Positions 42,649 to 64,000 of a stretch of 64,000 nt of DNA are shown here, one piece after another; the first letter of the stretch is position 1, and the number at the start of each line of letters is the position of its first letter. Below the pieces are notes generated by a model. It did no database searches, was not told where the DNA came from, and saw only the letters and a program-made list of their open reading frames with translations. This DNA is from a virus. The stretch covers positions 103,480 to 167,479 of the IMG/VR virus record IMGVR_UViG_3300008108_000039, one strand, 5' to 3'. Both the position numbers and the translations under genes were made by a program.

Positions 42649-45414
42649 TTAAAAGCAAGCAAATATATCATTATTATTAACATATACTGTTATATTAATA
42701 TCAGTACTTGTTGAAACAGTTATATTATACCCACAATATGTAGGATCATTAGAAGGACAACCTCCCCCTGTTTGAGCATTAAAATATACAGGAGTTCCTA
42801 CACCATCTATTACTCGAACATAAAAATTATTTCCATTAGTTACATCAACGCTACCCATTGTATTACATGTTGTTTGATCTATAGTTGGTGTAAAACTAGT
42901 ATAATTTACATTATCATTTGACCATTGAACAGTGCATATAGTATTTGTTTGAGAATCACCATATTTAGCATTTACATTTATTGAAGATTGTGCTGGAACG
43001 GGTGATGTACTAGGTGTTGGTGTTAAGGATGGTGTTGGTGTTAAGGAGGGTGTTAATGATGGAGTAGGTGTAGGTGATGGACAAACACTACAAGCTGAAA
43101 TTACTGTAGCAACATTACCACTAACAGTAGCTGTTACAAAGTTTCCAGCAAATGAAATATACACTGTTTGACCATTAAAGGCACTAAGACAACTTGCTGT
43201 GAATGTAGTACAGCTACAGAAATTAGAAGAATTACCTTGTAAATTACATGATGTAGCTCCAATTCCAGAACATGCACTATTAGAATCAGTTGAAATTAAT
43301 GCATTAAATAAGAATGGTGATGTTGATGGAGTTGGCGTTATGCTCGGAGTAGGAGTAATACTTGGAGTTGGCGTTATACTTGGAGTTGGCGTTATAGAAG
43401 GAGTTCTAGTAATACTTGGAGTAGGTGTTATACTAGGTGTTGGTGTAATACTTGGAGTAGGAGTAATACTTGGAGTTGGAGTTATTGATGGCGTTGGGGT
43501 TACAGAAGGAGTTCTAGTAATACTTGGAGTAGGAGTAATTGATGGAGTTGGTGTAATACTTGGTGTTGGTGTTATGCTTGGGGTAGGTGTTATACTTGGA
43601 GTAAGACTTATACTTGGGGTTGGTGTTATTGATGGAGTTAATGATGGAGTAGGTGTTATACTAGGTGTTGATGTAATACTTGGTGTTGGTGTAATACTTG
43701 GAGTAGGAGTAATTGATGGAGTTGGTGTAATACTTGGAGTAGGAGTAATTGATGGAGTTGGTGTTAATGATGGAGTTCTAGTAATACTTGGAGTAGGAGT
43801 TATACTTGGAGTAATACTGATAGATGGAGTTATACTAATACTTGGAGTAATACTGATAGATGGAGTTATACTAATACTAGGTGTTAGTGATGGAGTTGGT
43901 GTTATACTTGGAGTAGGTGTAATACTAATACTAGGTGTTACTGATGGAGTAATCGTTATTGACGGAGTAGGAGTTACACTAGGTGTTAAAGTTATACTTG
44001 GTGTTATTGACGGAGTAGGAGTTATTGATGGTGTTGGTGTTACAGAAGGTGTTATTGTAATTGATGGTGTTATACTAGGAGTTCTAGAAGGAGTAATTGA
44101 AATAGATGGTGTTACAGAAGGTGTTATACTAATACTTGGAGTAATACTAATAGAAGGTGTTATACTAATAGATGGAGTTGGAGTAATAGAAGGTGTTACA
44201 GATGGTGTTATACTAGGAGTTCTAGAAGGAGTAATTGAAATAGATGGTGTTATACTTGGAGTAACTGAAGGAGTTACTGTTGGTGTGGTAGTTGGAGTTG
44301 CCGTTGGTGTAATAGATGGAGTTGGCGTTATAGAAGGTGTTACAGTAATACTTGGTGTTATAGTAACACTAGGAGTAATTGTTATAGAAGGAGTAGGAGT
44401 TATACTTGGAGTACGAGTTGGAGTTACAGAAGGTGTTGGTGTTATACTTGGAGTTACAGTAACACTAGGAGTACGACTAGGTGTAATTGAAGGGGAAGGA
44501 GCTATTAAAGCATAGCTAATTCCAAAATCACAGTCAGGGCAAGTTAAATCAACTGTTATTAATCCTAAATTACTTGTAAGTAAACAACCACTACCTAACT
44601 GAGAATTAATAGTATGATATATTTGATATCTTGTATTAGATTTAAAAGAATTCAATGTTACTGTTCCATTACCATTATTAGTAAATAATGATACTTGATC
44701 TGCACTTCCTGATAACACAACTGAGTTAGGTAATAAAGTAGCATTACTTCTAGCTATATCATTTGTTATTACACTAAAAGTTTTATTAACATTATTTGAA
44801 GGAAAAGTAGCATATACAGCTCTTGCTAATGGAGGTAATGGAAATATATCTTGATAATCTTGATTAGTAATTACCATTAATCCTTGAGGGTAAAATACAT
44901 TTCCTATATGAGTTGTATTATAATCATAAAGATTTCCATTCCCATCATCAGTAATATAATAAGCAGATGAGGATAATATTATATTATAAGGTAATAATTT
45001 ATTACCATATATATCTTGTCTAACAGCTAATACACGAATACCAGCATTAGAAGCTGTTGGAAAATTATTTATAAATCGAGGATTTTCATCATAATTAAAA
45101 TATGATGCAGAAGCTGGTTGTTGAGAAGCAGAAACGTAGAAAACTGTATTTGCAATAGAAGAAGTATTAATAATAGAACCACTAAAAGCATGATAAAACA
45201 TATGATTCATTTGATCATAAATCAAACGTTCATATTGACCCTCTGTTACTGGGTCGCTTGTAGTATTAAAACTTCCTGTAAGGTTAGTACCTTTATAGAT
45301 TATTAGGCTTTGATCATTTTGTGGATAGCAATTATAGGATAAATTCCATTGCCTATTAGCAGCATAAGCTACATGCGTAACATCTGATTTGCTTAGTTTT
45401 CTGAATGAAGACAT
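42649..45414 (-). CDS. Baseplate-type N-terminal module fused to a long mucin-like (TPSI/TPTPS)n region and Cys-rich tip domains
   Basis: N-terminal ITDDGNGNL...[14 protein letters not shown], about 390 aa of T/P/S/I repeats, and two Cys-containing C-terminal domains. Confidence 0.85.
43315..44500. repeat. Coding tandem repeat array, 18-nt period (6-aa units such as [18 protein letters not shown])
   Basis: Degenerate repeats such as GGAGTAATACTTGGAGTT, with higher-order exact duplications around 43800-43880. Confidence 0.95.
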
Positions 45415-62804: not shown

Positions 62805-62839
62805 TAAATGTAGGTGGTCTATTTTGACCACCCACATTA
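62805..62839 (-). promoter_or_regulatory. Hairpin-promoter cassette, copy 1
   Basis: Minus strand AATGTGGGTGGTC-AAAATA-GACCACCTACATTTA: 13-bp stem with one G-U pair, overlapping the class-II motif. Confidence 0.75.
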
Positions 62840-63183: not shown

Positions 63184-63218
63184 TAAATGTAGGCAGTCTG
63201 TTTTGACTGCCCACATTA
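63184..63218 (-). promoter_or_regulatory. Hairpin-promoter cassette, copy 2
   Basis: Minus strand AATGTGGGCAGTC-AAAACA-GACTGCCTACATTTA, with compensatory changes relative to copy 1. Confidence 0.75.
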
Positions 63219-63239: not shown

Positions 63240-63506
63240 TTACTGTTCGATCAGGTTAATTTGTCCTTCCCACATACCAAAATTCGATTTTTCTGCGAAT
63301 GTGTAGGTGGAGGGTTTGGTAGTAGTGTCTGTACGGGTAAGGATCCATAAATTAGCCTCCTTCCAAGTAACATTTACTACACGTTGTCCGGAAGGGAGGG
63401 TAATGTCTTGGGTTCCTCCCCATGCTCGGGCTCGAACGTTTTCAGTACAGCTGCTAAACATACCTAATGTAATTACAGCTAATAGAATGACGATCATTTT
63501 TTTCAT
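63240..63506 (-). CDS. Phage lipoprotein
   Basis: Signal peptide and lipobox MKKMIVILLAVITLGMFSS-C, then TENVRARAWGG...VTWK..NLW.LT. Confidence 0.8.
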   Translation of the reverse strand: MKKMIVILLAVITLGMFSSCTENVRARAWGGTQDITLPSGQRVVNVTWKEANLWILTRTDTTTKPSTYTFAEKSNFGMWEGQINLIEQ

Positions 63507-63560
63507 TTGCTTTATATTTGGTTAATAATTACTTAATTACCTTACATTTAATTTTATAAC

Positions 63561-63592
63561 TAAATATACAACATTTATTTTTACTTTTCAAA
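63561..63592 (-). promoter_or_regulatory. Bacteroidota-type promoter
   Basis: Minus strand TTTG-N20-TATATTTA, close to the Bacteroidota -33/-7 consensus TTTG-N19-21-TAnnTTTG. Confidence 0.6.
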
Positions 63593-63645
63593 CAAATAAT
63601 ATAATATATTTTCAAACTATTTCATTAATTATATTATTAACTTAC

Positions 63646-64000
63646 TTAAACATATTTCTCAACTATTTTATTCACTAATTCTTCAACATCAAAATCATTA
63701 CCTATACTACTTAATACTATTTCATTATATATATTATTATAATTACCATTATTATTAAAATTTACTCTTAATTTATCACCTTCTCTCCAAACATTACCAA
63801 TATTAAACTTATTTCTAACTTTCAAACATACTTCACTATACATTTTATTCAACTCACTACTTTTTTTATTCAACTCATTTATTTCTTTATTCAATTTTTC
63901 TAACCTTTTATAATCAACATCTTTTACTAACTTACTTTCAATCCTCTCAACCTTTTTTTCATTAATCTTACTTACAATAACACCACTTAAAACATTAATT
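63646..64000 (-). CDS. Hypothetical protein, 3' part (starts beyond right edge), encoded without cytosine
   Basis: The frame of ORF 63646..63894 stays open to the window edge (INVLSGVIVSKINEKKVERIESKLVKDVDYKRLEKLNKEINEL...). No Ala, Pro, Thr, His or Gln in 117 residues. Confidence 0.65.
   Translation of the reverse strand, partial: INVLSGVIVSKINEKKVERIESKLVKDVDYKRLEKLNKEINELNKKSSELNKMYSEVCLKVRNKFNIGNVWREGDKLRVNFNNNGNYNNIYNEIVLSSIGNDFDVEELVNKIVEKYV

Follow-up and report, generated by a model that had tools for sequence, protein, structure and literature searches.

A coding stretch without cytosine at the end of the window

The window analysed here is the last 64 kb (64,000 nt) of a single 167,479-nt IMG/VR record of a freshwater phage (IMGVR_UViG_3300008108_000039; G000:C1:103480-167479). 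It closes with a tract, 63522..64000, in which the coding strand (minus) has no C and the copied strand has no G. A recount placed the final plus-strand G at 63521 and found the 479 nt from 63522 to the window end free of G, as the sequence-only reading had reported. This run (genome 167001-167479) is the longest G-free run on the plus strand of the whole 167,479 nt, the runner-up measuring 93 nt. The same reading had called it extremely improbable, at ~1e-22 for 10% G, and the calculation bears this out: with the plus-strand G content of 13.3%, P = 2.7e-30 per place and P = 4e-25 over the genome.

Most of one gene, which we call family A, lies within the tract. On the minus strand at 63646..64000 it comprises the third base of codon 8, codons 9-125 and the stop codon, with its first 24 nt past the contig end. 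The open frame of 117 codons (63646..63999) runs off the contig and contains no Ala, Pro, Thr, His or Gln, again as read from the letters alone. For the C-free composition of the tract, stop codons are expected at 13.5% of codons and 117 open codons are improbable (P = 4e-8); the frame is a real gene. The complete family A protein, P0001, has 125 aa, and an AlphaFold2 model (pLDDT 80.6) predicts a long helical hairpin and a small beta/alpha domain. Foldseek found no match for the model in the PDB or BFVD and no usable match in the Atlas, and VIA-align returned generic coiled coils only (best Z 5.1). Pfam gave sub-threshold coiled-coil matches only and PHROGs none; blastn and tblastn against 50,697 phage records found no family A match in cultured phages.

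The tract ends at 63507..63521 (minus strand), in the 5' leader of the next gene, where the first coding-strand C (plus-strand G at 63521) stands 15 nt before the ATG. This gene (63240..63506, minus strand) lies outside the C-free unit; it encodes an 88-aa protein with a lipoprotein-like signal peptide and has a normal composition, with 58 C in 267 nt. The promoter-like TTTG-N20-TATATTTA, of the Bacteroidota -33/-7 type, which the sequence-only reading had listed with the C-free frame, is present at 63561..63592 (minus strand), but it is located downstream of that frame and belongs to the next gene. Since the sequence up to 63521 is homologous to the promoter of the second C-free gene in relatives, the edge at 63521 is probably a recombination junction at which a C-containing gene replaced a C-free gene of another family, B. 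In the window phage the unit is cut down to one gene, and the terminator sits past the next, C-containing gene.

The remaining 222 ORFs of the record have 6.9-24% coding-strand C (median 12.6%); C depletion within this genome is all-or-none among ORFs. A C-free 120 nt before the start or after the stop is found for just 0.5% of its genes, and the C-free flanks of the family A gene are thus unusual too. The minus strand carries 219 of the 223 ORFs of 50 codons or more, so transcription is almost wholly one-directional. A 921-aa ORF at 42649-45414 (minus strand) has the genome's highest coding-strand C, 22.9%, with only 10.9% G, and it accounts for the GC skew of +0.42-0.67 at 43000-44500. Terminator-promoter cassettes with identical flanks lie between small early genes at 62805-62835 and 63184-63214; their stems covary (GGTGGTC/GACCACC versus GGCAGTC/GACTGCC) and they resemble the PeSL cassettes of T4-type coliphages.

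The tract is internal and recurs in independent assemblies

In four near-identical contigs (L001, L002, L004 and L005) the tract was followed to its complete length of 623 nt (L001 9533-10155), with small genes on the same strand to either side. L001 is 100% identical to the window record over 4,370 nt and then goes on for 9.6 kb upstream with 32 more small genes. The window end is therefore an assembly break, and the earlier suggestion that the tract marks a genome terminus or first-injected end did not hold; the upstream extension also excludes a terminal repeat at the tract. L001 matches the record only from L001 position 9677 on, its first 9.6 kb having no counterpart there. CheckV estimates the record to be 99% complete, but it lacks these at least 9.6 kb of small genes and is less complete than the estimate suggests.

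A protein search over 5.8 billion proteins returned 86 family A homologs at 48-100% identity. All 86 lack Ala, Pro, Thr, His and Gln, bar a single Thr in P0071, which comes from a 541-nt contig. At the DNA level we compared 25 loci, representing 13 distinct lineages with 71-98% nucleotide identity in the family A gene. Their tracts measure 473-1,397 nt, with a coding strand without C and every frame open. Thus the homologous tracts of relatives are likewise C-free, which makes the composition a conserved property rather than damage. Strand-specific deamination of a single-stranded end, another early suggestion, is contradicted by the zero C and intact frames kept across this divergence in assemblies of four sources.

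That the tract abuts the contig end, and that several further contigs also break beside it, would fit a strand-specific base conversion in sequencing or assembly, or a chimeric contig end. However, independent JGI, ENA, NCBI and Logan assemblies all contain C-free tracts. Within the same tract, 9 contigs of the JGI, ENA and NCBI assemblies encode the identical 125-aa protein P0001, those of Logan contain the tracts of relatives, and the 86 close homologs have diverged with frames intact and with the five C-requiring residues absent but for the one Thr. We found no G-to-A-converted duplicate of the tract elsewhere in the record. As judged from this conservation, the artefact option is refuted, and the probability that we leave to it is negligible. 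The breaks are an observation in their own right: many independent assemblies end in or beside the tract, no more than about 30 nt from where the gene starts (window 64000; L003 1-12; L006 1-31; L009, L036, L047-L049, L053 and L056), probably due to repeated, extremely A+T-rich promoter and leader sequences.

The C-free tract spans a predicted transcription unit

A promoter-like motif, conserved as TTTG and a -7 box of the TATATTTA type, precedes every tract gene and is often present in tandem. The longest tract, 1,397 nt on the 154-kb scaffold L007, has four genes of 59, 103, 126 and 61 aa, each with its own predicted promoter of the TGTGTATATTTA type. It starts directly past the preceding terminator and stays free of C up to the loop of the terminator hairpin that closes it. 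In L011, L022 and L023, the minimal units, 0-1 nt separate the last C from the -7 box. The G-rich 5' arm of the terminator forms the right edge across lineages, C returning in the loop or the 3' arm, and a G-C hairpin followed by a T-run closes the tract in L007, L010, L011, L017, L019, L023 and L028. L028, a contig of 47% GC with a TATAAT-type promoter, follows the same plan: its homolog has 43% G and not a single C in 540 nt, and C returns in the terminator's 3' arm. The exclusion of C thus covers the -7 box, leader, ORF and 3' hairpin up to the terminator loop, and since the tract spans promoter -7 box to terminator loop we take it to be a whole transcription unit. Within the -7 box, the absence of C as a DNA-level rule is not significant, as only 16% of this phage's boxes contain C. 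In L013 and L020, as in the window phage, the unit reads on into a C-containing gene with no terminator between.

The 3' hairpin lies at 63595..63638 (minus strand) and starts ~8 nt past the family A stop. It has an 11-bp stem of A-T pairs only and an invariant 20-nt loop, AATGAAATAGTTTGAAAATA (63607-63626), which begins ~20 nt past the stop; the flanking inverted repeat varies between lineages. The exact 20-mer occurs in 22 IMG/VR contigs, in 13 of them within C-free tracts (some with unrelated genes) and in 9 after unrelated genes of normal composition. Capsid-like genes and one high-GC contig are among these 9 contexts, and the stem, which is A-T only within C-free tracts, has G-C pairs in most of them. 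Over 16 contexts, pairing was found in 82% of stem cells versus 45% in shuffles (0 of 500 shuffles reached 82%) and 39-49% in slid controls, and 10 of 10 pairs had changed on both sides. The hairpin stands directly past stop codons in many unrelated phages and is also present in L010, L029, L037, L038, L039, L041, L044, L045, L046, L050 and L052. Its G-U pairs assign it to the sense strand, and its loop contains a mini-ORF, AUG-AAA-UAG. Of 11 exact 20-mer matches in prokaryote genomes, most are without such a stem and look like chance. Rfam gave no match to the hairpin, and a literature search did not find the loop sequence.

The absence of C is held more strictly than the protein sequence

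In the 13 lineages, the coding strand of the tracts has 0 C in 8,637 nt, against 13-18% C on the same strand outside the tracts. The alignment of the family A gene has 195 variable columns, which require at least 243 substitutions, and the number of substitutions to C is zero. In the adjacent downstream gene, compared at the same three loci, C is involved in 51% of the variable columns. A standard NG86 calculation gives a dN/dS of 0.83 for family A, which is inflated because C is forbidden; with synonymous sites counted on A, G and T only, dN/dS is ~0.6 (0.62). A dN/dS at this level, alongside zero substitutions to C, indicates that the absence of C is held more strictly than the amino-acid sequence. 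These comparisons show a natural early-type gene cassette in which, on the evidence of substitution patterns, selection keeps the copied strand free of G and hence the message free of C.

Several protein families share the C-free state, which has switched repeatedly

The C-free tracts encode at least 7 unrelated small protein families, with one to four genes per tract. Beside family A there are family B (55-61 aa), a 59-aa protein, family D (acidic, ~100 aa), an acidic 110-aa protein, a 149/114-aa paralog pair, a 176-aa protein and an acidic 134-aa protein. Ten homologs of family D, at 60-97% identity, are likewise without the five C-requiring residues. Pfam and PHROGs assigned none of the other C-free families, and these have no homologs within the window record. 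The genes that flank the tracts differ between loci, a modular shuffling among relatives. At L024 169-1174, C-free stretches of 597 and 408 nt, with one C between them, contain family A and the acidic 110-aa gene.

A profile search of 1.84 billion representatives placed family A in a larger family whose members share its length and architecture, 75 of them full-length. None of the five C-requiring residues occurs in 35 members, one to five occur in 8, and 8-31, a normal composition, occur in 32. On a weakly resolved tree the C-free state changes 13 times, of which at least 3 changes are forced by strongly supported branches alone; by this comparison the state has switched several times in evolution. 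C makes up 11% of a normal homolog and 0.8-2.4% of six nearly C-free lineages, which have 3-9 C each. Together with gp143 of the cultured Flavobacterium phage immuto (vB_FspM_immuto_2-6A), these six lineages have 39 residual C, of which 23 are at codon position 2, in Thr or Ala codons, 11 at position 1 and 5 at position 3. In the nearly C-free lineages 30 residual C follow a purine and 4 are in YC steps (5:0 in gp143), a bias that is confounded by the Thr (ACN) and Ala (GCN) codons. The distribution of residual C over the codons indicates a finite cost per C, traded against protein function.

At positions that hold Thr in normal members, the C-free ones favour Ser or Asn; for Gln they favour Glu, Asn, Lys or Arg, and for His they favour Tyr or Phe. 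Ala to Val and His to Tyr are enriched. Ile, the direct deamination product of Thr codons, is depleted (x0.6) where normal members have Thr; selected recoding therefore fits better than raw deamination.

Guanine-modification genes in phages with and without the cassette

Outside the window, the same record has a cluster at genome 61222-69455 (L068 1222-9455) with a dCTP-deaminase-like gene, a GIY-YIG endonuclease, FolE, QueC, a DpdA3-like transglycosylase and QueD. The DpdA3-like gene (genome 68213-69001, minus strand) encodes 263 aa at 33-36% identity over 99% of the length; the protein matches only the immuto 'DNA guanine transglycosylase' and CP220-group proteins, and the Pfam TGT model misses it. 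FolE, QueD and QueC are genes of the preQ0 pathway; QueE was not identified among the ORFs of the record that were scanned. In cultured phages with DpdA3, all G is replaced by a 7-deazaguanine (PMC10516641). The cluster thus predicts complete replacement of G by a 7-deazaguanine in the window phage.

The cultured phage immuto, in which G is fully modified, has in gp143 an acidic 118-aa early gene with just 5 C in 420 nt, each of them preceded by a purine. By eye, gp143 shares an FGSRG motif with a C-free family encoded in L038. No such tract occurs in a complete 309-kb phage that lacks que and dpdA genes. The cassette-bearing contigs G001, G005 and G006, which are only 27-52% complete, yielded no QueC. 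Five of the seven DpdA3-bearing genomes scanned (CP220 and the IMG/VR genomes G009, G011, G012 and G013; four of them 97-100% complete and one 84%) have neither a C-free nor a G-free tract, from which it follows that the cassette is optional and that modified G is no intrinsic obstacle to transcription.

Possible reasons for the exclusion of C

Very heavy transcription could have erased all C by transcription-coupled deamination of cytosine in the exposed non-template strand, and the tract boundaries, which are those of the transcription unit, the several tandem promoters and the enrichment of Ala to Val and His to Tyr are as this would predict. It would require that, in this unit alone, C-to-T changes outpace the reverse at least 1,000-fold, yet the early genes nearby, whose promoters are similar, have a normal C content; the replacement of Thr by Ser or Asn with depletion of Ile, and the nearly C-free lineages that regained or kept C at functional codons, also count against it, and we regard it as very unlikely. 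Evasion of Rho has slightly more to commend it. Naked RNA rich in C and poor in G is what Rho loads on, and an early message without C would thus never be terminated prematurely; Rho avoidance shapes coding-strand composition in bacteria with runaway transcription (PMC13323073), and residual C stands mostly after purines, YC steps being rare. Rho, however, requires many YC steps and a handful of C would be harmless to the message, yet 35 of the 75 representative proteins and every DNA tract examined are at exact zero. The synonymous purine-C codons AAC, GAC and GGC are excluded too, the purine-before-C bias carries the Thr/Ala codon confounding described above, and neighbouring early genes are not depleted in C. 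We consider Rho evasion unlikely. A message free of structure, in which the want of G-C pairs leaves the mRNA unfolded for efficient translation in Bacteroidota without Shine-Dalgarno sequences or for escape from dsRNA sensors, would agree with the restriction of the tract to A-U and G-U pairs and with its sole conserved hairpin, which uses A-U pairs only. The cost of a single C would be tiny and could not explain the loss of five amino acids or the exact zero in many lineages, and the G-rich L028 version (43% G) is not obviously unstructured, so we think this scarcely probable. The sequence-only reading had also proposed escape from palindromic restriction sites; such escape is true by logic, but it cannot account for the exclusion of every C on one strand.

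Another of its proposals was that a C-free transcript needs no CTP and escapes agents acting at C in new RNA. Candidates would be chain-terminating CTP analogues such as the ddhCTP of viperin, CTP shortage or a C-specific endoribonuclease, and the protection would be needed by no more than a few genes, for antidotes or for take-over. The anatomy and selection data fit this equally well, as the C-free region spans approximately transcription start to terminator and the cost per C would be additive and finite. Among phages of 25-47% GC the state comes and goes, as it would if it tracked host defences, and most of the DpdA3 genomes scanned are without a C-free cassette. ddhCTP is best documented against phage-type single-subunit polymerases. 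The early promoters here resemble host sigma-A sites, so ddhCTP may not affect these transcripts, and the units of the window phage, L013 and L020 continue into a C-containing gene without a terminator. We know of no C-specific RNase or CTP-depleting defence, and a search of the phage literature for CTP depletion found no match. That ddh-nucleotides are RNA chain terminators (bioRxiv 10.1101/2023.09.13.557418) counts for protection of the message, which we consider possible, though doubtful.

We narrowly favour over this, at a probability of about 0.35, the reading in which the cassette provides a copied strand free of modification. A copied strand without G would make the tract the one part of the genome with a template free of modified bases. 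Elsewhere a host factor would, in a hypothetical step, excise, nick or bind the modified guanines, and RNA polymerase could still read a few accessory, fast-evolving genes, probably counter-defence genes, from the G-free template. C is the only letter that an ORF can spare, because AUG and the stop codons require A, U and G. The unit anatomy from -7 box to terminator loop, found also in L028 at 47% GC, the absence of C despite extensive substitution, the all-or-none pattern among ORFs and the finite cost per base, with residual C mostly in Thr or Ala codons, are all consistent with a modification-free template. So are the FolE, QueD, QueC and DpdA3 homologs of the window phage, the low C content of gp143 in immuto and the lack of a tract in the 309-kb phage without que or dpdA. 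A G-free template and a C-free message are, however, the same sequence, and neither the anatomy nor the selection data separate the two. The cassette is missing from most of the DpdA3 genomes, its co-occurrence with modification genes may merely reflect a common phage or host clade, and the coding strand of the tract still holds G (11-19%; 43% in L028), so that the duplex still includes modified bases. We know of no defence against 7-deazaguanine DNA and of no host factor that acts on modified guanines as proposed. The same DpdA3 genomes without a tract speak against a simpler variant, in which the polymerase is hindered by modified G itself.

A more specific form of the modification-free template, which we offer as a speculation and think rather improbable, is that some aquatic bacteria use an enzyme such as a glycosylase to attack 7-deazaguanine phage DNA one base at a time, and that phages which replace all G answer with antidote genes on a G-free copied strand. 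A glycosylase-type attack of this sort, on glucosyl-hydroxymethylcytosine, has been reported for Brig1. If the base-by-base attack were true, it would add a new layer to the arms race over DNA modification and would explain why only cytosine, the one dispensable letter of an ORF, is ever excluded.

Comparison with known systems

A literature search for phage genes without cytosine returned nothing relevant, and we found no description, in the literature searched, of natural genes that exclude one nucleotide and five of twenty amino acids and are held so by selection across many lineages. Family A and its companions indicate that folded, evolving proteins made from a 15-letter alphabet exist in nature. 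Their composition points to an agent at work inside the infected cell, with either every C of a new message or every (modified) G of the copied strand as its site of action. The cassette genes are small, fast-evolving, often acidic and early, a counter-defence profile, and the cassette may mark new anti-defence proteins as well as a new host defence.

Messages cleared of an RNase site offer one parallel. MazF 'single protein production' uses ACA-less mRNAs, and the mqsR/mqsA genes are GCU-free; as in the phage tract, a coding sequence is cleared of the target of a nucleic-acid-acting agent while its product is still made. Those messages avoid one three-letter word and keep 20 amino acids, whereas the C-free tract drops a whole nucleotide from ORF, leader and trailer together with five amino acids. 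Avoidance of a single word, as for MazF, is not what we found, as every C-containing word is absent. The G-less and C-less cassettes of in vitro transcription assays, for which three NTPs suffice and which stop transcription at the first position of the fourth, resemble the tract in that its own first fourth-NTP position is the terminator loop. They are artificial and non-coding, whereas the phage tract is natural, protein-coding and maintained by selection.

In the T4-type phages RB49 and phi1, PeSL (promoter-early stem-loop) cassettes place small ORFans between a strong early promoter and a stem-loop terminator, occupy a hyperplastic region and are reshuffled among relatives (Arbiol et al. 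2010, PMC2839356). The C-free tract is like them in its closing stem-loop terminator (seven loci) and in its shuffled gene content and neighbours; no base exclusion is reported for PeSL, and the hosts and promoter consensus differ. The DpdA3 phages (PMC10516641) are linked to the present system by the FolE, QueD, QueC and DpdA3 homologs of the window phage and by the nearly C-free gene of immuto, but that paper describes no strand-specific avoidance of G, and none was found in most of the DpdA3 genomes that we scanned. The purine bias that avoids Rho (Dierksheide et al. 2026, PMC13323073) likewise shows coding-strand composition constrained by the fate of the nascent RNA. That bias is graded and genome-wide, whereas the exclusion of C described here is absolute and confined to one cassette.
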